Of a stretch of DNA of 64,000 bases, positions 1,230 to 21,073 are shown one piece after another. Numbering within the stretch: the stretch's first letter is position 1; each line of letters starts with the position of its first letter. The translations under genes and the position numbers were made by a program. Source of the DNA: Bdellovibrionales bacterium (GTDB lineage Bacteria > Bdellovibrionota > Bdellovibrionia > Bdellovibrionales > UBA1609); assembly GCA_016714165.1 (NCBI GenBank), contig JADJNU010000004.1:44944-108943 (forward strand), written 5' to 3'. Below the pieces are notes generated by a model. That model saw only the letters and a list, made by a program, of their open reading frames with translations, was not told the origin of the DNA and made no database searches.

Positions 1230-1703
1230 TTATGGATTTCTTTGTTGTTGCTCAAATAGGTTTGTTCCTGGATTTGGAATGCAAGTGCAGGACCTGCAAC
1301 CACTCGAATTGTATGTGCACTCTTTCCTTGCACCTAGAAATGCGCAATACGGTTCATAGTCGGAGCAATTCGAGCCCGGCCGCTCCCTAAATACTGAACA
1401 ACCAATAAGCGAAATATATAAGAAAAAAACAGAAAACCACCCGAGCACTAAGTAAGCAATGGACGGACGTTTCCGCCCAATGCTCCTCTGATAATCGGAC
1501 AGACGTGACTTATGCATCCTGCTCTTAGATAGGTGTTTCAACTCAGCTCCAAAATTACTGGTGACGTCATTTAATTCACAATCAAATGCGGTTATTGGAA
1601 ATAGCATAGGGTCACATATCGTGCGGCAGATACGACGATCGCCAGCAAAAATCATGGCTTTTAAGGCCGAGAAATTTTGAAGTTTACTTTGAAAGTCTTT
1701 CAT
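1230..1703 (-). CDS. small membrane protein with Cys-rich C-terminal tail (hypothetical)
   Basis: ORF 1230..1751. Preferred start is ATG 1703, preceded by GGAGGG. One hydrophobic helix (LVLGWFSVFFLYISLIG) is followed by NCSDYEPYCAFLGARKECTYNSSGCRSCTC (6 Cys). It overlaps the stop of the upstream M48 gene by 20 nt on the same strand. The helix plus NCSDYEPY block has a paralogous copy at 20080-20184 with synonymous or conservative codon differences. Confidence 0.5.
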   Translation of the reverse strand: MKDFQSKLQNFSALKAMIFAGDRRICRTICDPMLFPITAFDCELNDVTSNFGAELKHLSKSRMHKSRLSDYQRSIGRKRPSIAYLVLGWFSVFFLYISLIGCSVFRERPGSNCSDYEPYCAFLGARKECTYNSSGCRSCTCIPNPGTNLFEQQQRNP

Positions 1704-6957: not shown

Positions 6958-8443
6958 ATGAGAATTTATTCATTTGTACGAAAAGGAATGGAATTAGTTT
7001 CTATTGAGGTTGAACTGAATCTGCTCCCAGGGGCGAATCAGCTTCAGATTATGGGCTTGCCAGATACGGCGATACGCGAAAGTGGACTTAAGATTAAATC
7101 GGCCCTCAAGACTCAGGGGTTTAAGTGGCCGGCCGGGCAACAGATTCTTATTAATTTAAGACCCTCACACTGGAGAAAATCAAGTCGGGGATTGGAGCTC
7201 GCAATTGCCTGTGCCTACCTCTGGAAATCGGGCCAGATGAGGCCGCCAGAGGGGCTTGGTGAGGACATTTATGTCTACGGAGAGCTCGGACTAGATGGGA
7301 AAGTCTATGCACCTGGTGACCTGGACTCATTGTTTAATCACCCCACTCAGGCTCCGATTTTTACTGGGAATCATGATCAACAGCTTCCGTGGTCGTTCCT
7401 CATGATCAAGGACCTTAAGGGCTTGCGATGTCCAGAAAAATTGGAGGCCAAACCCCTTTGTGATTTTAAGTTCGAGGCGACTCCTTTGCCTCAGTTGGAT
7501 TTTCCGACCGAAGCGGCTAAACTTTTGAAAATAGTTTCACTCGGAGAGCATGCGACATTGGTTGCAGGTCCCGCAGGTTCCGGCAAAACGACTCTTGCAA
7601 GAGGACTGCATGCTCTTCTTGGGCCTCCTCCCTCTCACTTGTGGCCCGAGATGGCGCGGGTCAAACGTTGGTTTAGCGATTCAACGCCCTATCGGCCATT
7701 TGTGTCGCCTCACCACAGTGTGACTCCAAGTTCGATGATTGGCGGGGGATTCCCGGTATTTCCAGGTGAAATTACTCGGGCGCACGGAGGCCTGCTTCTT
7801 TTGGATGAGTTTTTAGAATTTCCGGCTCAAGTAAAGGAATCCTTGCGTGAACCACTTGAAAGTGGAGAGATTATCATTTCTCGCCGAGGTCAAAATCAGA
7901 CTTTACCGGCCAGATTTCTCTTATTGGCCACGACCAACCTTTGTCATTGTGGGCGTTTGGTTCCAGAACGCAGAGCCCCGTGCCGATTTAGTCTGACTCG
8001 CTGTCGATCCTATTTAGAGAGAATGAGTGGTCCCATGTTGGATCGATTTGATGTTTTGGCTTTTAGCAGCGATTGGGCAAGATCGGGGCAAGCTCATTCC
8101 AAAAATGATAGAATGGAATCCATGCAAAGCATTTTTTGAACATGTCGAAAGAGCCCGTTTGTTTCAGCGAAATCGTCAGACGACAGAAATTCAAGAAAAT
8201 GGTTCTTTCGAAGTTAACGGCAGGACGGATGAGACAAGGATCTCCCAGACTCTGCCTCCCTTTGTAAGAGAAAATCTTTTACCCACGATGGGGGATTCTC
8301 GGCGCCGCATGCGAGCTCTGATGCGGGTGGCTAGAACATTGGCCGACTTGGATGAAAACCTATCCATCCAACTACCTCATCTCAATGAGGCATCACAGTG
8401 GGCGTGGAGAAACTTCGAGAACCTCAATCAGATTTTCGCGTGA
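6958..8443 (+). CDS. comM: ComM/YifB Mg-chelatase-like AAA+ protein, apparent frameshift near 8070-8125
   Basis: ORF 6958..8139 has a Lon-like N-domain, Walker A (GPAGSGKTTLARGL), Walker B (LLLLDEF) and MSGPMLDRFDV. ORF 8027..8443, in another frame, supplies the family C-terminus (RRRMRALMRVARTLADLDENLSI..HLNEA). The two pieces together make a normal-length protein. Confidence 0.8.
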
Positions 8444-8523: not shown

Positions 8524-8597
8524 GGTGGCGTAGCCAAGTGGCTAGGCACCGGACTGCAAATCCGTGAACGCCGGTTCGAATCCGGCCGCCACCTCCA
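8524..8597 (+). tRNA. tRNA-Cys (anticodon GCA), CCA encoded
   Basis: Hand-folded cloverleaf. Acceptor stem GGTGGCG/CGCCACC, anticodon loop CTGCAAA, T-arm GCCGG-TTCGAAT-CCGGC, discriminator T then CCA. Close to the layout of E. coli tRNA-Cys. Confidence 0.9.
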
Positions 8598-8847
8598 AAT
8601 TAACCTGATCTGAAGATTCCGATCCATTCCAAATGTCAGAAGCGTCGTGACAAAGCCTTCCAAAAAAGAAAGGAAGGCGTGCATGAAAAGGAAAAGAATT
8701 ACGATAGGAGATCACTTTAGTCGTGAGAGTGTTGCCGTAGATGTCGGGAAATCACTGCGAGCATCCCACTGCCAACCGTGGAGAACCGAAATTGCTTGGC
8801 TTTACCGACGCGGTTCGCTTGAGTTAAGTCCAAATCACTGATGCGTC

Positions 8848-9888: not shown

Positions 9889-10398
9889 TTAGAATCACCT
9901 TGCAATTGTTATACCAAGCCTTGCTCAATGAGCGCCCCACAGTGGCTCCCGGCGAGTGGTGAATGAATGCTTGAAGTTTCAGCGGGTTCGATTGCGCGAT
10001 CGTGACGGCGGAAGAATCCAGTGTCCGGTGACAGTACCTAATCTGGTCGCTTAGTCGCGAGATTTTACAATTTTCTTCTTGTAAGAAATCGATCCCCGGT
10101 CGTCGTGATCGGTCAGTTTCATAAATGCAATTCTAATATAAACTAATTCTATTTGTCACGATGCCCTTTTTGAAGCACCCGACTCACAAATGCAGAGCCC
10201 TTTAGTCTCAAGGCACAAGGGCCTGATTGGCCTTATTTTGTCGCTCTGCTGTCTGGCCTAGGCGCTATTCTCCGCACCTTAGGTTCTCAAACAAACTGAG
10301 ACTCAATAATTTGGTCGGTCTGGATTGAGCGCTCCATAAACCCTATTTCCCTGACTTGAATTTTTCCCATAAATTACTCCGCATCCAAGGAGGCTTGA

Positions 10399-10701
10399 GT
10401 GAAAAATTCTGAGCAAAGATTAAAAACTAAGGAATATTGGCAGACCAAAATCAGGGAGGCAGAGAGTTTTTCTGGCCCCGAGACCGAGTTCTGTCGGCAA
10501 GAGGGGCTGAACAACACAGCTTTCAAGAATTGGAAGTATCGACTATCGAGGGGAAGCAAGAGCGGGGGTAATCGACGTCGAAGGTCCTTGAGCTCAACTT
10601 TTGTGCCAGTGGAAGTTAAGACACCAAGAGCAGCTCATTCACTTCCTGACGCGCAGTGGGTGGCCGAGCTGATTTTTTATCTGCAGGGAGGTACCCGATG
10701 A
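10399..10701 (+). CDS. IS66-family accessory protein (orf1/TnpA-like), element A
   Basis: GTG start behind AAGGAGG. 100 aa. Helix-turn-helix-like ...FCRQEGLNNTAFKNWKYRL. Its stop overlaps the tnpB start (ATGA). Confidence 0.75.
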   Translation: MKNSEQRLKTKEYWQTKIREAESFSGPETEFCRQEGLNNTAFKNWKYRLSRGSKSGGNRRRRSLSSTFVPVEVKTPRAAHSLPDAQWVAELIFYLQGGTR

Positions 10702-11054
10702 AATCTCCCAGCCAATTTGAGGGAGTGTTTCTGCATCGGGATCCTGTGGATTTACGCCGTGGGATTCCGGGGTTGAGTCAGATTGTGGAGAGTGCCCAAA
10801 TGGGAAAGTTGAGTGGGAAAAATCTTTTCGTGTTCTGTGGTCGACGACGGCACACGATCAAGATTCTGTATTTTGATCGAAGTGGGTTCTGTCTATGGCA
10901 AAAGCAGTTGGATGTGGAAAAGTTCCCATGGCCGAAGAAATCTGTGGAGGAAGTCGTCCATATATCCACAGAGCAATTGAGTTGGCTTCTGGAAGGTTAT
11001 GATGTTTGGAAAATGAGGCCATTTTCAGAAATAAATTTTGAAAGAGTCTGTTGA
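10698..11054 (+). CDS. tnpB: IS66-family TnpB (orf2), element A
   Basis: 118 aa from ATG 10698. The sequence DPVDLRRGIPGLSQIV...LFVFCGRRRHTIKILYFDRSGFCLWQKQLDVEKFPWP matches the IS66 Orf2 pattern. Confidence 0.8.
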   Translation: MKSPSQFEGVFLHRDPVDLRRGIPGLSQIVESAQMGKLSGKNLFVFCGRRRHTIKILYFDRSGFCLWQKQLDVEKFPWPKKSVEEVVHISTEQLSWLLEGYDVWKMRPFSEINFERVC

Positions 11055-11489
11055 TCTTTCAAAGAAAATGTTGAAGAGTCCCTCGCATGCAAGCGCAGGA
11101 GTTATTTTCAAAACAAGAACAGTTGTCCTCGGAAAATGAAGGACTGAGAGCGCGTGTTCGTCTTGATGAAGAGAAGATCAAGTTCTTGCAAAGTGAAGTC
11201 ACTTGGCTGCATGAGCAGATCCGTTCTCTTAAGCGGGCGCAGTTTGGGAAAAAGTCGGAGACTTGGGTGTCGCCCGAGCAGAAGATTCTCTTCAACGAAG
11301 TGGAACTTGAAGCCTCCAAAGGGACACCTGAAGAGGATGAGGCACAGATCGAAGTCACGGTTCCTGCGCATAAAAGGAAGCGGGGTCATCGTCGTCCAAT
11401 ACCCGAGAGCCTGTAACCCATCAACTTGCCCCACATTTTTATATATAAATAATCTGGTAAATTGAATCCACGAACACAGGAGGTGTCGA

Positions 11490-11870
11490 GTGGATTTAGA
11501 GGTTTTGAAGAAGCGAATGAGTTGCTATCGAACGCCAAAGGGGAAGTTGACGCGAGTTCCAGATGAGCTCTTGATAGATATTTTAATGGCATGGGAGCAA
11601 TGGACAGGCCCGGCCAGCGGATTTCATGCTGCGCTGGGGGCTGACTACAGGAAAATGGCAGGCCTTATTGGACGAGCAAAGAAGTTAAAACGAGAGGGTC
11701 ACTTTCCAGAAGAGGCCTTCAAGGAGATTAAGTTGCAGGAATCTCCATCGAGTTCAACCTTTTTAGTCAGTGGCCCCTGTCAGGGGGTTGAGATTGTATG
11801 GGACAATGGGAAATTGATCAGGTTTAGCCAAGTGGAGCGGTTGGTGGATTTCTTAAAGAGAGTCGCCTAA
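11490..11870 (+). CDS. IS66-family accessory protein (orf1), element B
   Basis: GTG start behind AGGAGG. 126 aa. First gene of the element, immediately upstream of tnpB. Confidence 0.7.
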   Translation: MDLEVLKKRMSCYRTPKGKLTRVPDELLIDILMAWEQWTGPASGFHAALGADYRKMAGLIGRAKKLKREGHFPEEAFKEIKLQESPSSSTFLVSGPCQGVEIVWDNGKLIRFSQVERLVDFLKRVA

Positions 11871-11879
11871 AGGGAGTAA

Positions 11880-12326
11880 ATGTTAAATTTTAATCGACGA
11901 ACAAAGATTTTTGTCTCCAAGGAGCCTGCAGATATGCGGGCTTCCTATGACACTTTGTTTTCGAAAGTCCGAGATATTTTAAGTGAGGATCCATTTAGTG
12001 GCCATTTGTTTGTATTTATTAATTCCAGAAGATCGGCGATCAAATGTCTGTACTACGACGGCACGGGATTGGTGTTATTATGTAAGCGTTTGGAAAAGAG
12101 CACGTTTTCCAAGATCAATCCGATGTTCAGAGGTAAAATTGTACTGACGGCTGCGGAGTTTGCATTATTTTTTGAAGGTGCGAACCTTGAGAAGAGATTT
12201 ATTGAAAGCCCTCGGGAAATAAATAAAAAAATTCCCAATGAGTCAAGAGTTGCAACAGGCCTCGATGTAGTTCAATTTATTTTATGTGAAGCAAGATCAA
12301 ATTTTCGAATCCATTCCATGCCATAA
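11880..12326 (+). CDS. tnpB: IS66-family TnpB (orf2), element B
   Basis: KEPADMRASYDTLFSKV...GHLFVFINSRRSAIKCLYYDGTGLVLLCKRLEKSTF matches the IS66 Orf2 pattern. Confidence 0.8.
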   Translation: MLNFNRRTKIFVSKEPADMRASYDTLFSKVRDILSEDPFSGHLFVFINSRRSAIKCLYYDGTGLVLLCKRLEKSTFSKINPMFRGKIVLTAAEFALFFEGANLEKRFIESPREINKKIPNESRVATGLDVVQFILCEARSNFRIHSMP

Positions 12327-13836
12327 ATTCGAGTCTCTGACGAAGTTAGAGCTGATCGAGTTTAACGAGGCCCAGGCCCGGGTGATAAAACAGTTTGAAA
12401 AAGAAGTGGCTCGTCTGCAGGCAGAGAAAGCCGGGCAGCAGAGTTTGTTGATTGATGATAAATATATCTTCTTAAAAAAGAAGTTTTTTGGTCGCAGTTC
12501 GGAAAAGGAACTCCCCTCTGAGTTGGATCTACAGATCCCAGAATATCCTCAAAAGACTCCAAAGACCCGGGTCCTTCTTCCCAGCCAAAGATATCCACAT
12601 TTAGCAATAGAGGTTGAGGATTTGGAGCTGAAGACGCTGCCAGTCTGTAGTTGTTGTGGTTCAGAGACAATGGACTCTGGAATGTATGAAGTGAGTGAAT
12701 GTTTAACATTGGATCCGCGGGAGTTTTTTGTACGCAGAACTCGTCGTAAAAAGTATCGATGTGGCAAATGCCATGGATCGATGGTCACTACGCCCACATT
12801 GCCACGAATAATGCCTGGTGGAAGTTATTCTGATGAGCTGATGATTGATGTGGCAATGAGCAAGTACTGTGACTTGGTTCCGATTGAGAGATACGTTTCT
12901 ATCGCTGGCCGCGAGGGTCTGGAAGACCTGCCTCAGAATAGTTTGATTGAGACGACACATCAACTTGCGGATTTTGCCGAGCCGGCAGTTGATAGGATTT
13001 TAGACAAAGAGATTAAGCCGAGTCATGTTTTGCATGTCGACGATACAAGACATCGAATGCTGAAGAAGCCTAATCAGGCCCATTACCTGTGGGGTTTTTC
13101 AAATAAAATCGCCAGTTATTTTGAAGTTCATGGGACCAGATCTGGTGAGGTGATCAGCGAGCTATTGAAAGACTCAAAATGTGAGTATTTGGTGAGTGAT
13201 GCATTTAGTGGCAATAACAAATCAGTGAAGGATACGAACGATTATCGATTGCAAAATAAATTGAGTCTTATTCAGCAGGTCTATTGCAATGCTCACGCAC
13301 GGAGGAAATTTAAAGAGGCCAGGGAGAAGATGATCGATGCCCAGGTGTATATAGATCTATATAAAAAAATTTACTATCTCGAAGGCCAAGCTAAAGAAAA
13401 GCCGCCAGATGAGATTTTGGCTTTGCGCAGCCAGATGAAGCCATTATTTGATAGAATTAAATCGTTCTGTGTGCAGAATACAGATAGTTACTCTTCAAAA
13501 AGCTCAATCGTTGAGGCGATGAACTATTTTACAAAAAACTATGAGGCATTGACTCGGTTTTTAGACAATCCGGATCTTCCGATTGATAACAATCCGCAGG
13601 AAAGACTTCTTCGAAATCCTGTGATTGGCAGAAAGACTTGGTACGGAACCCAGACCGACCGAGGCGCAAAGACAAATGCGATCATGTTCACGATCGTGGA
13701 GAGCTGCAAACTCAACAAAATAAGTCCCAGGGAATATTTGAAAAATCTGGTCGTTAGTATCCTTCATAACAAAGAAGTTATAACTCCCAATGAATACAGG
13801 ATTTTGAAGGAATCAAAGACTCAATCGACGAGGTAA
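12286..13836 (+). CDS. tnpC: IS66-family DDE transposase TnpC, element B
   Basis: 516 aa. Zinc-finger CxxC..CxxC (CSCCGSE...YRCGKCHG), SKYCDLVPIER, HVDDTRHRML, CNAHARRKF, IDNNPQERLLRNPVIGRKTWYG. The stop lies inside the right inverted repeat. The exact start (GTG 12286) is uncertain. Confidence 0.85.
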   Translation: MKQDQIFESIPCHKFESLTKLELIEFNEAQARVIKQFEKEVARLQAEKAGQQSLLIDDKYIFLKKKFFGRSSEKELPSELDLQIPEYPQKTPKTRVLLPSQRYPHLAIEVEDLELKTLPVCSCCGSETMDSGMYEVSECLTLDPREFFVRRTRRKKYRCGKCHGSMVTTPTLPRIMPGGSYSDELMIDVAMSKYCDLVPIERYVSIAGREGLEDLPQNSLIETTHQLADFAEPAVDRILDKEIKPSHVLHVDDTRHRMLKKPNQAHYLWGFSNKIASYFEVHGTRSGEVISELLKDSKCEYLVSDAFSGNNKSVKDTNDYRLQNKLSLIQQVYCNAHARRKFKEAREKMIDAQVYIDLYKKIYYLEGQAKEKPPDEILALRSQMKPLFDRIKSFCVQNTDSYSSKSSIVEAMNYFTKNYEALTRFLDNPDLPIDNNPQERLLRNPVIGRKTWYGTQTDRGAKTNAIMFTIVESCKLNKISPREYLKNLVVSILHNKEVITPNEYRILKESKTQSTR

Positions 13837-15109
13837 GTTGATGGGTTACGAGAACCTTGAGCGAGAAGTGGTGAAGATCGAGCTTCCAGAAAATGAGCGT
13901 TTTTCTGAGGAGGGACAACCTCTCAAGGTGATTGGTTGGGAATTTTCGGAGAAGCTCAAGTATGAGCCAGCTAAAGTCAGTGTGATCCGCTATGAGAGGG
14001 CCAAGTATGGAGTGGACAGCGGGGACTATGTGAAGACCGCTCCGCCTGTGCCTTCTGTGATCCCTAAGGGGATTGCCACTCCCGAGTTACTTGCCTTCAT
14101 TATGACATCCAAATATTGCGATGGACTTCCGCTGTACCGGATTGAGGAGATCATGGATCGTCAGGGAGTTGATCTTCCCCGCAGCACGATGGCCCGCTGG
14201 GTGGTGCAAGTGGCGCAGGCTCTTGTGCCTGTCTGGAAAGTTCTTTCAGACCGGTTACTCGCCTCTTTTTATGTGGCCGTGGATGAGACGCAAGTGCAGG
14301 TTCTCAAAGAGAATGGCAGGAAGGCCGAAGACAAATCATGGATGTGGGTGAGGAGTACGCCCTACGGGGACAAGAAGATTGTTCTGTTTGATTATCGCAT
14401 CTCCCGGAGCCAGGAAACGGCCAGGCAGCTTCTGGACGGGATTACAGGATATCTGCAATGTGACGGATTGAATACCTACGATGTGTTGGAGAAACAAGAG
14501 GAGTGATCCGCATAGGATGTGGGATGCACTCCCGCAGGAAGTTTGAATCCGCCACAGTGGATGGGGCTAAGTCCGGCCGAAGTCTTGGAGAAACAGGCCT
14601 TGGTTACTTTAAAAAACTCTACGATCTGGAAGAGAAGATCGGCGAGAAGTCTTCTGATGAGCGGTATCGCCTGAGGTTGGAAATAGCTGAGCCCATCTGG
14701 AAAGAAATGAAGGAGTGGGCTGAAAGACATCAGCCCAAGGTTCCAGCCAAAAGCAAGATTGGAGGGGCCTTCCGCTACTTCTTGAATGAGTATAAGTACC
14801 TGACAGGCTACCTCAAGGATGGGCGTCTGGAGGCGGACAATGGCTTTACGGAGAGAGCGATCCGCAAGTATGCCATCGGAAGGAATGCGTGGCTGTTTTC
14901 CGACACCCCCGCGGGGGCCGAGGCCAGCAGTCTCATGTACAGCTTCACTGTAACAGCCAAAATCAATGGGGTGAATCCTTACACAGCCATGGTTCGACTG
15001 CTTACTGAGCTACCACTGGCCAAATCCCTCGAAGACTTCGAGCGCCTCGCTGAGATCATTTTATCACCTGATTCTCAAGCCTGAAAAATACGGGTTTTGA
15101 ATCGCTTAC

Positions 15110-15926
15110 TTCGGAACTCGCATTTTCGTACATCATCAAAGACATTGTTTGCATATTCAGCCAGGTGGAATCTATCAATGCAGATTCTAGCGTTGGGGCA
15201 CATTTTGCGAACGGCCTTGATAAATGGCTCGTGCATATCAAGGGAAAAATACTTTATCTTTGCAAGTTGTTCAGGTGATAGCTGATTTAAACAAGTGAGG
15301 AGGGATCTTTCCGATCGCCCAGGAGCGTTTGCTAAAACCTTTGACTGATCATAACAAACAAGATTGGTGACATACTTGATCTCAGGTCGATCAAGGCTAT
15401 TCTCCTTCGGCATCGTTCGAAAGTGAACCTCATCTCCACTCATTTTTTCCAAATCTATATTTTCTGGCAATCTCAGGAGTGGTTTCAGATTGACCATCCG
15501 ATTTTGATCCAGTGACCAAAGCGTTTTTGACGATGCATTTAAAAATCTGGCTACGGCCTCGCAGGGCATTTCCTCCATAAGTCGACCTGCAAACTCACAG
15601 AAGGAATAAGTCAAAGTGTCGAAGTCTGGATATAGAAAGGGAATGTGAGCCGACCTAATCCTATCGTCACACCCTAAACAGTACCCTCTCAGCTGAAAGA
15701 GAATCACCTCCACATACAAAAAGGCCCCAAACGGCGGGGCACGCAAAGATCTCTCTTTCCACTCATGTACATAGCCTATCTGATTGCCGCATTGATGGCA
15801 GAGACAGGAGGCTCGATCTTGCCTCACGAATACTTTTAAGCTCAACTCTGACCGGTCAAATTCAAATTTTTCGATAGTCACACCTTGTAAACCAAGGGCC
15901 GTCGTGATGAGATAAGAGAAGTCCAT
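15110..15926 (-). pseudogene. ISL3-family transposase, N-terminal ~270 aa only (truncated by IS66-A)
   Basis: ORF 15075..15956. ATG 15926 sits behind GGAGGT. ISL3 zinc-finger region (CLCHQCGN...GYCLGCD) and DDE region up to ICIDRFHLAEYANNVFDDVRKCEF. The reading frame then runs into the IS66-A right terminus at 15109. Confidence 0.75.
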
Positions 15927-16327
15927 CCTTGTACCTCCGCGAGTTTTTTTCTGCAAATTAAAGCTTATGCGAAAGGTCTTGTTTGATGGACTTTTTTATT
16001 TCAGCGACAATGCTCGACTTAGGTATTAACAAAATGAGTCACCTTCTATAATTCGGAGAGCCCAGAAGCTTAAAATTAAAGTGAACTGCTGCAGTGAAAA
16101 ATACCTTACCTGAATTAGAGAGTTAATTTTATACATGAACAAATGTGTTTGCAAATTTTGAACCAATTCGTATCCGGTCCAGTGGGCCAAAATCAAGAAC
16201 CTTACGTAGAAGATTAGATGTAAGTGGGCTATCGGTCCCATTTTTTTCCAAAAAATAGGAATGGCACCCTATAGCCCGCTGGCAATTAGACCCAATAAAT
16301 CTCTAGATCTGGTGAATCCTCAAATTC

Positions 16328-16462
16328 TAAACAGAGGCATCGGTGCTCTCAAAGCTGTGTAACCTAAGATTTCCTGGAGAAACATTGGGATTAGGCTCGG
16401 GTGGGGCGGCCAGGAATACTTTTGAATCGGGCCTAAATCGCATTTGAAATCCTTAGCCGTCT
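16328..16462. repeat. 135-bp direct repeat, copy 1 (identical to 17174-17308)
   Basis: Compared base by base by eye; all 135 nt are identical. Confidence 0.9.
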
Positions 16463-16471
16463 ACCCGATCG

Positions 16472-17140
16472 TTAGGGCCGACGAAAGAAATGATCATGTT
16501 TGCGGTCAGCAGTTGGAAATCCGCTGAATTCCAATTTTTTGAGGATATTTCTTGAAGCAGCGTTTTTCTTTAGGACAGAAGCATGGACACCGGTGGCATT
16601 CAAGTGATCAAACGCAAATTGAAGAACCCGATCCACCACTTGAGTACCGTAACCTCGCCCCCAAACTTCAGGCATCAGGGAATAACCGATGGAGAACCAA
16701 GTTTCACTCGGGCGACCAATTTCATAGTCATAGATGGCTTGAAGGTCCGCTCGAACTAACTGAATAGATCCAACAAGTTCGTTGTCAACTTCAATCACGA
16801 AATCGATCGCAAGATCTCTGACGGATAAGGCGGAGGCGAGAGTTCTTTGGCCACGACGAAATATAACCTTTACCCTATCGGCATCCAACCGATCCCCACT
16901 CATCCTTCTGACCTTTGGGTTTCCGAATAACTTGATCATAAAATTTAAGTCTGAGTCAGGATCTACCGGTCTTAACTGACAACACGCGGTCGCTAATTTA
17001 AGTTGCTCTATATTTTCAGACCGGGAAAGATTGAGTGCACCCCCCAGTTGAACATGGCAGATTTCTGCTCCAAGTGAGTCACTAGGTAAGACCAAAGATG
17101 TCACAAAAAACCAAATCAGAACAATGAAAAGATCTAACAT
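16472..17140 (-). CDS. GNAT-family N-acetyltransferase (RimJ/RimL-like) with hydrophobic N-terminal leader
   Basis: 222 aa. VGSIQLVRAD...FSIGYSLMPEVWGRGYGTQVVDRVLQFAFDHLNATGVHASVLKKNAASRNILKKLEF carries GNAT motif A and B. The N-terminus MLDLFIVLIWFFVTSLVLPSDSLGA is signal- or TM-like. Confidence 0.8.
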   Translation of the reverse strand: MLDLFIVLIWFFVTSLVLPSDSLGAEICHVQLGGALNLSRSENIEQLKLATACCQLRPVDPDSDLNFMIKLFGNPKVRRMSGDRLDADRVKVIFRRGQRTLASALSVRDLAIDFVIEVDNELVGSIQLVRADLQAIYDYEIGRPSETWFSIGYSLMPEVWGRGYGTQVVDRVLQFAFDHLNATGVHASVLKKNAASRNILKKLEFSGFPTADRKHDHFFRRP

Positions 17141-17173
17141 ATCTCCAGATCAAGCAAATTTCGTACCATTGTG

Positions 17174-17308
17174 TAAACAGAGGCATCGGTGCTCTCAAAG
17201 CTGTGTAACCTAAGATTTCCTGGAGAAACATTGGGATTAGGCTCGGGTGGGGCGGCCAGGAATACTTTTGAATCGGGCCTAAATCGCATTTGAAATCCTT
17301 AGCCGTCT
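17174..17308. repeat. 135-bp direct repeat, copy 2
   Basis: Identical to 16328-16462. It continues directly into the IS256-type transposase tail. Confidence 0.9.
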
Positions 17309-17536
17309 GCTCTACCTGGCAGTGAAGGATGCGACAGTGAAATGGACTACTCCAAAATGGAACTGGGGACAGGTCATTGCACAGCTCTCAATCCATTTTG
17401 GGGATCGAGTTGAACTGGACCTCATTTAAAGCTTTTGGGGGCTAGGAGAGTTACCCCTAGCCTCTTCAAGGTGTAAAAAATTTATGGTTTGAAAGGGTCG
17501 CTTTGAAGTCAGAGCTTATCATTGTAGATTCCGTTA

Positions 17537-18694
17537 ATGCAAAAAACATGTTTTTTACTATTTACGCTGCTCACATCGGTATCTTTTGCGACCGCGAATA
17601 CCGAAGGCTTTTTTAATCCCGGTTATCTGCCTCATTTTCCACTTTCTTCGGTTGAAAATAGTGTCTTCAAAATTGAAATTGCTCCCAAAATGCATGGGAC
17701 GGCATTTGCAATTTCAAATGAAGTGATGGTTACTAATGTTCATAATGTTACCCAATGCCTAAGAGACTATGGCTATGTAGATACTGGTTACGATGGCTCA
17801 CGTGGACCTCTAAATTGTAAATCTCTTGCACTAATCCTCCCCGATAGCAGCAAAGCTAAAGGCATCAAATTACTCGGCTCCAATTCTCGTCATGGCAATG
17901 GTGGTTGGGACTTTGCAATAATAAAATTATCTGGCCTCAATGCAGTTCCTATCAGCTTAGGCAAATCTGGGCCTGTTGCCGGTGAATCTCTTTTTGTAGC
18001 AGGCTTCCCCGGGGCAACATATCGAGGTAAGGAAGCTATTCTTGAGAAGATAGAAAAGTTTGTAGATCTCTTTGAAGCGATTTTCGAAACCCAATCAAAG
18101 TTAGGTTCGATTGATACCAATAAAAAGTCTTCGGAAGAGATTTTTCAGCTTTTTCTTAAAGACGGTTTTACGAAACTTCAACCACATACTACTTGGTCTG
18201 AATTCTTGTCTGGGTCTCTTATTGGGAGGTCTTGGAATCCCCTGCTTGCCTGGCAAAATGAATCCTCGGCAACATATTACCAAAACCTCATTAGGCACAT
18301 TGAGCTATTTAAAAAGGACTCTTTTATCCTACTTAGTATGGTTCAAAAAGGCTCCTACATTGCCATCACAGGTTATCCTGATGCGGATGGCTCTCTCAAG
18401 GTAAGTAAGGCCGAACTTCATAGGGATGCTGAGCCGGGTGTTAAAATACTACATGGAGACGCAACTCCCGGCTCGTCAGGAAGCCTTGTTGTAAATGAAG
18501 CTGGGGTGGCTGTAGGAATTCTGTTTCAAATTAGAGGGCTAGATCCAGACTCAAATGAACTTTGCTCGTTGGATGCAATTATGACTGATTTTGAGTCGAT
18601 TAATTTCAATTACTGTCCTGCACTGGGACCAACTATTGTTTCAAGTGATATTATTTTGAAAAAGCTCGCTGAATGGGATGTCGAACTCCCGTAG
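17537..18694 (+). CDS. secreted trypsin-like (S1 family) serine protease with a long insert
   Basis: Signal peptide MQKTCFLLFTLLTSVSFATA. Catalytic triad contexts are VMVTNVHNV (His), WDFAIIKL (Asp) and GDATPGSSGSLVV (Ser). About 185 aa separate the Asp and Ser contexts. Confidence 0.75.
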   Translation: MQKTCFLLFTLLTSVSFATANTEGFFNPGYLPHFPLSSVENSVFKIEIAPKMHGTAFAISNEVMVTNVHNVTQCLRDYGYVDTGYDGSRGPLNCKSLALILPDSSKAKGIKLLGSNSRHGNGGWDFAIIKLSGLNAVPISLGKSGPVAGESLFVAGFPGATYRGKEAILEKIEKFVDLFEAIFETQSKLGSIDTNKKSSEEIFQLFLKDGFTKLQPHTTWSEFLSGSLIGRSWNPLLAWQNESSATYYQNLIRHIELFKKDSFILLSMVQKGSYIAITGYPDADGSLKVSKAELHRDAEPGVKILHGDATPGSSGSLVVNEAGVAVGILFQIRGLDPDSNELCSLDAIMTDFESINFNYCPALGPTIVSSDIILKKLAEWDVELP

Positions 18695-18953
18695 AATTTT
18701 AAGCTTTAAATTTCTTTTGCTCTACTCAAATTGAAAGACCACCAGGGAAGATCAAGGCGAGAAATGTCTTGCCCAAATAAGAAAATTTGGCTAGACACTG
18801 TGAGTGCAAGAAGTGATGCCGCTCACTCATACACAAAATTTCTTACAGTCTCACTCCAAGCCTTCGAGCCCAAGATTGACCTTCCCAGAACTTAACCTTT
18901 TTTGTTTACCCATACATAAAAATCGCGCAATAAAATATCAGAGATCCAATCAG

Positions 18954-19318
18954 CTACTACTGCACATATAGCGTCTTATAACTTTCGCTGGGATCTTATG
19001 GTTGTGTGCTCATCTCACAATTTGTGGCGTTCAGCTCGAGATTTCTGGTCTTCATGTTTAAACTCAAGTATCCGTAGCAATTCTCATGCGGTGCTCTTCG
19101 TCCTTGAGAGCCTTGACCCCGGATCCCATCCACTCTCTTTGCCTGAGCGAGCATTGGTATATTTCACTGTCCACTTTTTGATTTATGGCAAAATCGGGGG
19201 AAAATTGTTAGTAAATTATCGAGCGCGAATAAAATATCCATGTCCATTTGATCCATCCAATATTATCTTGAGATGTTTTTGATTTTTTTTGCCTAAACGC
19301 ATGGGTAAATCATTATTA
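18954..19318 (+). repeat. left arm of a long imperfect inverted repeat (non-coding conservation)
   Basis: Aligns with the reverse complement of 20179-20503 in four blocks, including a 44-nt perfect core (19072-19115). Confidence 0.8.
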
Positions 19319-19345
19319 ACAAGACTTTTCTTACATCAAATCAGC

Positions 19346-19375
19346 TTGACTCAGTGAATTAAATTCTGCTAGATT
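19346..19375 (+). promoter_or_regulatory. putative sigma70-type promoter for the 19557 ORF
   Basis: TTGACT (19346-19351), an 18-nt spacer, then TAGATT (19370-19375). Prediction from consensus only. Confidence 0.3.
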
Positions 19376-19556
19376 CAGCGACCCTGATTTTGATGCCTCC
19401 TCTTAAAGATGGCGACGAATAAGAAGATTTAGGAGAAGTTGTCTTTTTCGGGCCTCATAATGGGGGCAAATCGGTGTCGTCTTTGAGAGTATTGGTTTTT
19501 TTTCTGCTACGATCATTCCGGTTTTTTTAGGAAGTTGGTTTGAAGGGAATTGTTTT

Positions 19557-20042
19557 ATGCTTGTCAAATTTTTTGGATGTTTAATTACTTTGAGTTTCTC
19601 TCTGAGCGCATTTGCCACCAGCAACCTTGAGAAGTCTGAATGCGTTAAAATACTTAAGCGAGAACAGATTGTTTGGAGCTTCGAATCAAATGAAGTCGTG
19701 AACGAAAAGGTGTTGGGGGATTACTTGGATCTGTTGTCGGTCTTCGCAGAACCGTCGCCAAAGACTCTAAAATTGTCTTTGTTCGAATATGAAAGATACA
19801 TCACGCATTTACTCTCGGTTGAGAGGCTTGAGGGTCCATGGGTGACAGATGAATTATTGCCCAATCTTTTGGTTGCGCATCCTGAGTTAGAGGTCTCCCA
19901 GATTCCACCTAACAGTTGGCATAACCTTCAAGGTCCACCTCCTAGAAAATTGTATTTAGCTAAAAACCGAGTCAAGGGAACAGCGGCATATTTTGCCATT
20001 TTTTCCCGTCAAGGAAAGATCATAGTCTGGCCTCTTGATTAA
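19557..20042 (+). CDS. hypothetical secreted protein
   Basis: 161-aa ORF. Leader MLVKFFGCLITLSFSLSAFA. No family recognised. Confidence 0.55.
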   Translation: MLVKFFGCLITLSFSLSAFATSNLEKSECVKILKREQIVWSFESNEVVNEKVLGDYLDLLSVFAEPSPKTLKLSLFEYERYITHLLSVERLEGPWVTDELLPNLLVAHPELEVSQIPPNSWHNLQGPPPRKLYLAKNRVKGTAAYFAIFSRQGKIIVWPLD

Positions 20043-20079
20043 TGAACCTTGGTCCGATGATGAAAGTTAGGATTTGGTA

Positions 20080-20184
20080 ATGTTCGGATGGTTCTCTGCG
20101 TTTTTCCTTTTTTTTTCGCTTGTTGGCTTTTCAGGCTTTAAGAAGCAGCCAAGCCCAAATTGCTCCGACTATGAACCGTATTAG
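20080..20184 (+). CDS. 34-aa hydrophobic micro-ORF, or gene fragment paralogous to the C-terminal part of 1230..1703
   Basis: MFGWFSAFFLFFSLVGFSGFKKQPSPNCSDYEPY*. It aligns codon for codon with GWFSVFFLYISLIGCSVFRERPGSNCSDYEPY, with no indels and several synonymous changes. The upstream in-frame continuation has a stop (..WSDDES*), so it may be a remnant. The RBS is weak. Confidence 0.3.
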   Translation: MFGWFSAFFLFFSLVGFSGFKKQPSPNCSDYEPY

Positions 20185-20503
20185 TGATTTACCCGTGTTT
20201 TCGGCAAAAAAACGCCATAGCTCCCATTGAGAGCCAATTATTGAGTATTCTTGAGTCGAGACTATGGTAGCATAATTACGTGGACGGTGAAATATACCAA
20301 TGCCGATGCTTAAGGCAAAAGAGAGAGGACGGGGGCCGGGGCCAAGGCTCTCAAGGACGAAGAGCACCGCATGAGAATTGCTACGGCTACTCAAGTTTAA
20401 ACACGAAGGCCAGAGAAGACTTGAGCCGAACGCCACACAAGTGAGATGAGCACACACCATAGGGCCGGGCGAAAGTGATCAGTCGCTATATGCGCAGTAG
20501 TAG
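20179..20503 (-). repeat. right arm of the long imperfect inverted repeat
   Basis: Its reverse complement aligns with 18954-19318. The perfect 44-nt core is at 20343-20386. Confidence 0.8.
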
Positions 20504-20662
20504 TTTGGGTGCCCATGAGATTTTTGAGTCATGAATTTAAATACGGGTAGCCCTACTGCTCTTCGCTAAATCTTTTCCTCTTCATCTTCGCCTCTCACTT
20601 TTTTGGTTTATGATACAGAGAGACTCATCTTTCAACTGGTTCGGTTTTCGGTGGAAAGGTCA

Positions 20663-20819
20663 TCGGGGCCAGAAAAATTCTCTGCCTCCTTGATTTTGGT
20701 CTGCCAATATTCTCTGGTCTTAAATGTTTTCTCAGAATTTTTCACTCATACCTCCTTGGGTATGGAGTAATCTATGAGAAAAATTCACATCACAAAAATA
20801 GGGTGTATGGAGCGCTCAC
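20663..20819 (-). mobile_element. solo left-end remnant of an IS66-family element (inverted relative to IS66-A)
   Basis: The reverse complement reads GTGAGCGCTCCATACACCCTATTTTTG...AAGGAGGTATGA GTG AAA AAT TCT GAG. This is homologous to 10325-10480. The orf1 reading frame ends after about 35 codons and homology is lost. Confidence 0.75.
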
Positions 20820-21073
20820 GGTCTGGATTAAAAACGCAGCCGTGCCAGTCTGAAAGTGGACGTGTTTTATCATTAAACCGTCAAGAAAATGTTGGGCCTC
20901 ATCCTGCACCTTGAAGTTCATCCGAAGTTATCCTTTCCTATCAAAAGTCAATTAACTGATCGGGATCGAAACGGCCTCAACAGCGGGTGTGTCAAAATAG
21001 TCAATTTGATTTACACACCCTGGCACACTCGATAAGAATTAATGCGAGAATCTCCACAGTTTAGGTTGAAAAA

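Follow-up and report, generated by a model that had tools for sequence, protein, structure and literature searches.

A probable fossil compound transposon bounded by two IS66-family left ends in a Bdellovibrionales contig

In a 64,000-nucleotide stretch of contig JADJNU010000004.1 from a Bdellovibrionales bacterium (GenBank assembly GCA_016714165.1, positions 44,944 to 108,943), here called the window, we analyzed a block of DNA (10,325 to 20,819) that is bracketed by the left ends of two IS66-family insertion sequences (ISs). Our findings indicate that this block is very probably a compound (composite-type) IS66-family transposon, now a fossil. The left inverted repeat of a complete element, IS66-A (IRL-A, at 10,325), and that of a remnant, IS66-B (IRL-B, at 20,819), lie in inverted orientation, face outward and bracket the cargo. 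The 8-mer GGTCTGGA is found on the plus strand, in direct orientation, just outside both of them, whereas the inner flank of IS66-A, after position 15,109, reads TTCGGAAC. IS66-A thus lacks a duplication of its own, as had been pointed out in an earlier note on this DNA, which a model had made from the letters alone. Given that the outer 8-mer is shared while the complete IS66-A has no duplication of its own, we infer one transposition event that used IRL-A together with IRL-B. Among simple histories, only the insertion of a unit with two outward left ends, accompanied by an 8-bp target duplication, agrees with the data.

The two left ends and the 8-bp direct repeat

Read on the plus strand from 10,325, the left end of the block is TTGAGCGCTCCATAAACCCTATTT, followed by the ribosome-binding site (RBS) AAGGAGG and a GTG start at 10,399. 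The right end, read on the minus strand from 20,819, is GTGAGCGCTCCATACACCCTATTT, with the same RBS and the same first codons. A repeat search aligned the two arms (10,326-10,481 and 20,663-20,818) over 156 nt with 86% identity, and in a MAFFT alignment the homology stopped after ...CTGGCCCCGA (...TTTTTCTGGCCCCGA). The earlier note had stated that the same left end recurs inverted from 20,819 with homology lost about 155 bp in, and had proposed aligning the two termini as a check; the alignment returned homologous ends, not the lack of homology that the note had named as the adverse outcome. Of the first 24 nt, IRL-B shares 22 with IRL-A, compared with 17 for the right inverted repeat of IS66-A (IRR-A), so IRL-B should be at least as good a substrate as IRR-A. 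Since the window holds only three ends of this IS66 type, no other pairing of ends is possible.

Both copies of GGTCTGGA were read where the earlier note had placed identical, directly oriented 8-mers. The note's 8-bp repeat stood, except that the exact direct identity is in fact 11 bp long (CGGTCTGGATT, 10,316-10,326 and 20,819-20,829); within it, only the 8-bp register gives symmetric element ends. The probability that two random 8-mers drawn from the 64-kb window are identical is 2.3e-5 (about 1 in 43,000); the note had given about 1 in 65,536 for a given pair of sites. In the whole window, GGTCTGGA occurs three times on the plus strand and never on the minus strand.

An 8-bp target duplication has been described for IS66 (PMC6778807), for ISPpa5a and ISPpa7 (PMC3281130), and for ISDge4 (PMC12898284). 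For the clade studied here, we took flanks from ten short contigs carrying a relative with 91% identity (P0038-type copies). Flanks could be paired across contigs in two cases: ...GAATAAAA precedes the IS in L095 and GAATAAAA... follows it in L094, and ...GCTGATAC precedes it in L092 while GCTGATAC... follows it in L096. The element boundaries in these copies align with window positions 10,325 and 20,819. Together with an intact IS66 nested inside IS66-A, the two flank pairs bring the local cases of an 8-bp duplication in the correct register to three, covering both this clade and the nested element.

The nesting had escaped the earlier note, which treated IS66-A as one element; there are actually two IS66 elements within 4.8 kb. 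The length of the outer element was obtained by taking out the inner IS66 plus one copy of its duplication. After this removal, the outer element is colinear from end to end, at 93% identity, with an intact three-gene copy in L089 (5927-8267). It carries tnpA, tnpB and a tnpC with leucine-zipper, zinc-finger and C-terminal domains (Pfam TnpB_IS66, LZ_Tnp_IS66, zf-IS66, DDE_Tnp_IS66 and DDE_Tnp_IS66_C). The sole gap relative to L089 is a 1-nt deletion near 14,501 in tnpC, outside any homopolymer. Because of the inner insertion and this frameshift, the outer transposase gene has been inactivated twice. The termini are of the IS66 type (5'-GTAAGCG or similar), with right end GTAAGCGATTC and left end TTGAGCGCTCC. 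The left terminal base is T, as opposed to G in the IS66-B end and in all relatives (ten or more). These relatives begin with G(T/C)(A/G)AGC and finish with CGCTTAC at the aligned positions, so the register used in the window is correct. The clade is distant from named IS66 elements: its TnpC is 57% identical to a transposase from a plasmid of Bdellovibrio sp. HAGR004 and about 40% identical to Pseudomonas proteins.

The inner IS66 has 18-nt terminal inverted repeats, GTAACCCATCAACTT(G/A)CC, and is flanked by GAGAGCCT (11,405-11,412) and GAGAACCT (13,850-13,857), an 8-bp duplication with seven of eight positions identical. Uninterrupted relatives carry GAGA(A/G)CCT as a single copy at the insertion point; for the inner element, therefore, an empty site is verified in addition to the 8-bp duplication. 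Its tnpB and tnpC fall in protein clusters with many metagenome members. A separate insertion was seen in the IS66-A relative in L090, where a 3.4-kb insert (L090 7996-11371) between element positions 2070 and 2071 encodes a 697-aa large serine recombinase and small helix-turn-helix proteins.

At the other end of the block, IS66-B consists of the terminus GTGAGCGCTCC, the RBS and the 27 first codons of tnpA. Its 156 nt are 83-86% identical to the left ends of three elements of the IS66-A type, those in L089 and L090 included, which marks it as a genuine IS66 left end and not a chance inverted repeat. Its N-terminal peptide, VKNSEKTFKTREYWQTKIKEAENFSGP, had no match among the full-length TnpA proteins found, no full-length copy of the IS66-B type was found in the collections searched, and exact scans of metagenomes and viral contigs with the shared left end returned 0 matches.

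Block-free relatives and the history of the insertion

The spacer that received the block lies between a gene for a 346-aa orphan protein on the left and corA on the right. The 90% cluster of the orphan protein has four other members, whose contigs we used for comparison. Two of them, L081 (54.5 kb) and L084 (4.7 kb), lack the block and have corA next to the 346-aa gene in divergent orientation, with a 721-bp spacer in between. L081 aligns with window positions 27,033-20,823 at 84.7% identity and with 10,095-8,788 at 95.5%. On the right side, homology to L081 and L084 runs through TTAAAAACGC... into CTGGA and ends at 20,823, inside the right 8-mer and 3 nt from the tip of IS66-B. Judged from these alignments, the right junction behaves exactly as an insertion boundary. 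The remaining GGT of the right 8-mer, which is not homologous to L081, matches the three bases that end the window-specific left flank, the outcome expected of a duplicated target of the window type.

On the left side, the 221 bp next to the block (10,096-10,316) have no homologue in L081 or L084. Compared with the 264-bp counterpart in L081, they share only a 12-nt motif, whose score was reached in 3 of 300 shuffles, and they are neither repeated nor IS-like in any of the loci compared. The empty site is therefore verified for its right half only, and the pre-insertion target is a reconstruction. Given that the identity of L081 to the window is a mosaic across the whole region, ranging from 83% to 95%, the spacer may plausibly have diverged or recombined. 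Neither of the two flanking genes had an exact protein match; a CorA scan of species-representative genomes gave 75% at best (in Bdellovibrionales metagenome-assembled genomes), with neither synteny nor an empty site; and the reconstructed empty site, searched for in metagenomes as an exact 26-mer, gave 0 matches. Names of cluster members, together with CorA and TnpC similarity, are the basis on which the lineage was assigned in our analysis. The reconstructed site has no open reading frame (ORF) or notable structure across the junction. From independent samples, L085 matches the right flank at 99.5% identity and ends 80 bp before the right junction, while L088 matches part of the cargo at 99.4%, which makes a purely chimeric assembly less likely. 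Samples such as SRR14932559, SRR14932523 and SRR14932599 contain a strain with 99.5% identity. The near-identical Logan contigs L086 and L087 lie inside genes and are uninformative on the junctions.

We propose the following history for the block. At a donor site, the outer IS66-A would have inserted into an ISL3 element, as suggested by an ISL3 transposase gene that is cut at IRR-A and whose other half is absent. Its remaining part matches Pfam DDE_Tnp_ISL3 (positions 13-104 of 240) and NCBIfam transpos_ISL3 (positions 4-229 of 370), the latter match ending at residue 284, near nucleotide 15,105. A related IS66-B would have lain a few kb away in the opposite orientation, with both left ends outward. 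An IS66 TnpC, probably from the then-intact IS66-A or possibly supplied in trans, would have paired the two left ends in place of IRL-A with IRR-A. The DNA between them would have moved into the spacer between the 346-aa gene and corA with duplication of GGTCTGGA, and the far half of ISL3 and IS66-A's own duplication partner would have been left behind. Later, an intact IS66 would have landed in the outer tnpC, the same gene would have suffered its 1-nt frameshift, and the left terminal G would have become T; IS66-B would have been reduced to its stub either later or before the move. The T at the left tip and the 11-bp identity could record imprecise end cleavage or repair during the event. 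The earlier note had the whole 10,495-bp block inserting as one unit. Insertion as a unit is supported by the register of the duplication, the block-free relatives and the truncated ISL3 gene, but the size is not: because the inner IS66 breaks the outer transposase gene, the moving block probably measured about 8.05 kb at most. At slightly less than an even chance, an IS66 transposase may have joined its own left end with the orphan left end of another IS66 species (IRL-IRL synapsis), thereby moving at least 8 kb of neighboring DNA in a genome of the Bdellovibrionales type.

Several observations weigh against transposition as a unit. With no more than 86% identity, the two ends come from different IS species, while a classical composite transposon has the same IS on both sides; the outer left terminus begins with T in place of the canonical G; and the 11-bp identity would also allow a 9- to 11-bp duplication with a nibbled end. 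The duplications of the clade had to be pieced together from flanks on separate contigs and in separate samples, and the related full copies in L089 and L090, on long contigs, have no flanking duplication. The 221 bp to the left of the block are unmatched in the relatives, and the L081 version of the target, ATGCTGGA, agrees at five of eight positions. No second copy of the block was found in the window or the searched collections, nor was a donor site, and the source is probably a metagenome-assembled contig. A composite transposon in the strict sense has two copies of the same IS, at least one of them encoding an active transposase; here IS66-B is a stub and the tnpC of IS66-A is disrupted twice. 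Since the ends differ as well, the present element is non-autonomous and of hybrid origin.

These observations leave room for other explanations. Given that the interval is rich in independent IS events (nested IS66 elements, ISL3 and IS256 fragments, debris), IS66-A and the IS66-B stub could have arrived separately and acquired matching 8-mers by chance. The left flank, which is not conserved in relatives, and the copies in L089 and L090, which show that this IS often stands without duplications, are compatible with such a coincidence. We consider it very unlikely: the 8-mers match in precisely the register that was predicted, with a P of about 2.3e-5 that stays at or below about 1e-3 when several registers and lengths are allowed, and separate arrivals would have left each element with its own duplication or with none, rather than a single 8-mer shared between the outer flanks. 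What adjoins IS66-A on its inner side, moreover, is a truncated ISL3 gene with no copy of GGTCTGGA. The mosaic in L081 (95.5% identity to the left of 10,095, 221 bp unmatched, 84.7% from 20,823 rightward) would fit a recombination breakpoint near 10,095, as if the transposition had happened in another lineage and the block had been imported by homologous recombination with its 221-bp left flank and several kb of right flank, without ever transposing in this genome. Such an import, which we regard as unlikely, would still need unit transposition with an 8-bp duplication, only in the donor lineage, and the uneven identity of L081 is region-wide and not specific to the block.

A mis-join through IS66 repeats, with the two junctions on different molecules, seems extremely unlikely. 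The source appears to be metagenome-derived, the split genes (a ComM-like gene in the left flank and the outer tnpC) could be sequencing errors, a perfect 135-nt repeat is present in the cargo, and chimeras across the repeat are plainly visible among short-read contigs of related ISs. An identity of 86%, however, is too low for collapse or mis-joining of the ends, a mis-join would not yield a matching 8-mer in the correct register, and the two outer flanks are expected mutual neighbors in the relatives. By reasoning, we also rejected three other routes. Inversion between inverted IS copies swaps flanks, yet each element keeps its IRL and IRR; replicative intramolecular transposition predicts identical copies and inverted 8-mers; and end replacement in a single inserted IS needs a deletion that finishes exactly at the tip.

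Cargo and neighboring sequences

Coordinates of the individual features are given in Table 1. The cargo agrees with the list in the earlier note: ISL3 and IS256 fragments, a GNAT gene, an S1-type protease and an inverted-repeat module at 18,954-20,503.

Table 1. Features of the block and its borders (positions in the 64-kb window)
Feature	Position	Strand	Basis and remarks
Left copy of the 8-bp target duplication, GGTCTGGA	10317..10324	+	Read directly; identical to 20820-20827
Outer IS66-A	10325..15109	+	2,340 bp after inner-element removal; left end TTGAGCGCTCC..., right end ...GGGTTTTGAATCGCTTAC
Outer IS66-A tnpA	10399-10701	+	NCBIfam IS66 TnpA
Outer IS66-A tnpB	10656-11054	+	Pfam TnpB_IS66 (PF05717)
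Outer IS66-A tnpC, three pieces	11087-11416, 13838-14506, 14503-15084	+	Pfam/NCBIfam IS66
Inner intact IS66	11413..13849	+	2,437 bp, at about codon 109 of outer tnpC; Pfam and NCBIfam
Inner IS66 tnpA	11490-11870	+	IS66 family matches
Inner IS66 tnpB	11880-12326	+	IS66 family matches
Inner IS66 tnpC, uninterrupted, 516 aa	12286-13836	+	IS66 family matches
ISL3-family transposase gene fragment, N-terminal ~62%	15110..15956	-	Cut exactly at right end of outer IS66-A
Repeat-bracketed region with GNAT acetyltransferase gene (16472-17140)	16328..17308	-	Pfam Acetyltransf_3, Acetyltransf_1
IS256-family transposase C-terminal fragment, ~40 aa	17300..17430	+	Translation and tblastn
Trypsin-like serine protease, 385 aa, N-terminal signal-like sequence	17537..18694	+	Pfam Trypsin_2, 3.3e-12
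Palindromic module, inverted arms 18954-19318 and 20179-20503	18954..20503	.	Repeat search, alignment
Fragment of 159 bp adjoining IS66-B stub and palindromic module	20504..20662	-	Sequence and translation
IS66-B solo left-end remnant, second IS66 species, 157 bp	20663..20819	-	86% identity to 10326-10481
Right copy of the 8-bp target duplication, GGTCTGGA	20820..20827	+	Read directly; L081/L084 homology begins at 20823, CTGGA, then TTAAAAACGC

The GNAT gene is enclosed by two 135-nt direct repeats (16,328-16,462 and 17,174-17,308) that are 100% identical and 846 bp apart, the second adjoining the IS256 fragment; they may stem from a recent partial tandem duplication, from recombination or from an assembly artefact. 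The IS256 fragment, which is too short for a Pfam match, showed about 50% identity by tblastn to the C-termini of annotated IS256 family transposases in 919 plasmid records. No relative of the protease at 90% identity or more was found in a collection of 15 billion proteins, nor of the other cargo proteins; PADLOC returned only a generic protease-domain match, and a PDB sequence search gave none. The palindromic module consists of inverted arms of about 365 bp with a 90-96% identical core around a 161-aa ORF (19,557-20,042) with a signal-like N-terminus. It had no match in Rfam, Pfam, NCBIfam or PADLOC, and a flanking duplication of its own was looked for and not seen. Contig L088 matches 19,323-20,327 and differs in the 66 nt leftward, so the central part of the module is present in another context. 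A 105-nt stretch of the module is 80% similar, in inverted orientation, to window positions 1346-1450. The cargo gave no Rfam matches and has no obvious selectable trait or evident adaptive or clinical function.

The 159-bp fragment between the module and the IS66-B stub starts with TGACCTTTCC and encodes MKRKRFSEEQ*. It is unassigned, but another IS may have truncated IS66-B and left its own left end here. The fragment resembles a left end of the IS3 family, which would account for the loss of most of IS66-B; neither Pfam nor blastn supported this assignment.

Both sides of the 346-aa gene are variable, making the locus a hotspot. Next to tRNA-Cys (8524-8597), a stretch of 180 bp in the window (8608-8787) corresponds, in the relatives L081 (11100-18217), L082 and L083, to a 7.1-kb block encoding TonB, FtsX, a chromate transporter, TauE, DUF6691, Sulf_transp, MBL-rhodanese, thioredoxin and ArsR-type regulator proteins. 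L082 and L083, from different samples, both end at the same base inside the variable spacer between corA and the 346-aa gene, which suggests strain heterogeneity or a repeat there in those populations. The ComM-like Mg-chelatase gene, intact in L081 (484 aa), is split in the window into overlapping ORFs (6958-8139 and 8027-8443), either by a frameshift or by a sequencing error. Immediately beyond it, the relatives have a XerC/D-type integrase gene. A 39- to 60-nt intergenic motif with CCCCGGTCGTCGTG, at window positions 10,075-10,134, recurs inverted at L081 14618-14676, in an unrelated spacer of the relatives, with 87-90% identity, and may be a small repeated intergenic element.

Significance and comparison with known systems

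To our knowledge, the transposition chemistry of the IS66 family is still poorly characterized, and the block offers a clean natural example of IS66-family ends moving adjacent DNA as a unit. If an IRL-IRL synapsis did take place, the case would be informative, as evidence at the level of sequence that solo end remnants allow IS66 elements to build transposons of a hybrid, hemi-composite kind. That two left ends of different IS species served as partners would bear on how IS66 transposases recognize ends. The locus also documents layered IS activity (IS66 in IS66 in ISL3) in a variable spacer near tRNA-Cys of an uncultured Bdellovibrionales-like lineage. Practical consequences are small, given an inactivated element and a cargo of no evident adaptive or clinical function. 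The block is of an ordinary kind of bacterial mobile DNA. Gene clusters flanked by IS66 have been mentioned (10.1101/2025.04.28.651035), and a limited literature search found no description of an IS66 transposon with an IRL-IRL hybrid structure.

In its gene order (tnpA-tnpB-tnpC), its 8-bp duplication and its termini (GTAAGCG or GTGAGCG), the outer element resembles IS66, IS679, ISPpa5a, ISPpa7 and ISDge4, and its DDE TnpC has the leucine-zipper, zinc-finger and C-terminal domains of the family. Whereas a standard IS66 has an IRL and an IRR, the mobilized unit has a left end on either side. Tn10 and Tn5 resemble the block in having inverted, outward-facing, IS-derived ends with cargo between them, outside ends that are used together, and a duplication of IS-typical length around the whole unit, with none at the inner end of the complete IS. 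In contrast to Tn10 and Tn5, the ends of the block come from two IS66 species (86% identity), one side is a 157-bp stub without a transposase, and the cargo is mostly IS debris together with the GNAT gene, the protease and the ORF for a small secreted protein. The unit is thus hybrid or hemi-composite, not a classical transposon with two identical ISs. ISEcp1, IS1247-type units and mobile insertion cassettes, the last having IS ends but no transposase, use weakly matching alternative right ends or are purpose-built cassettes. If IS66-B was already a stub, the block would resemble these systems in that the transposase of a complete IS would have used an orphan end nearby in place of its own second end and carried neighboring DNA along; unlike in those systems, the surrogate here is a true left end that comes from a sister IS and matches closely.

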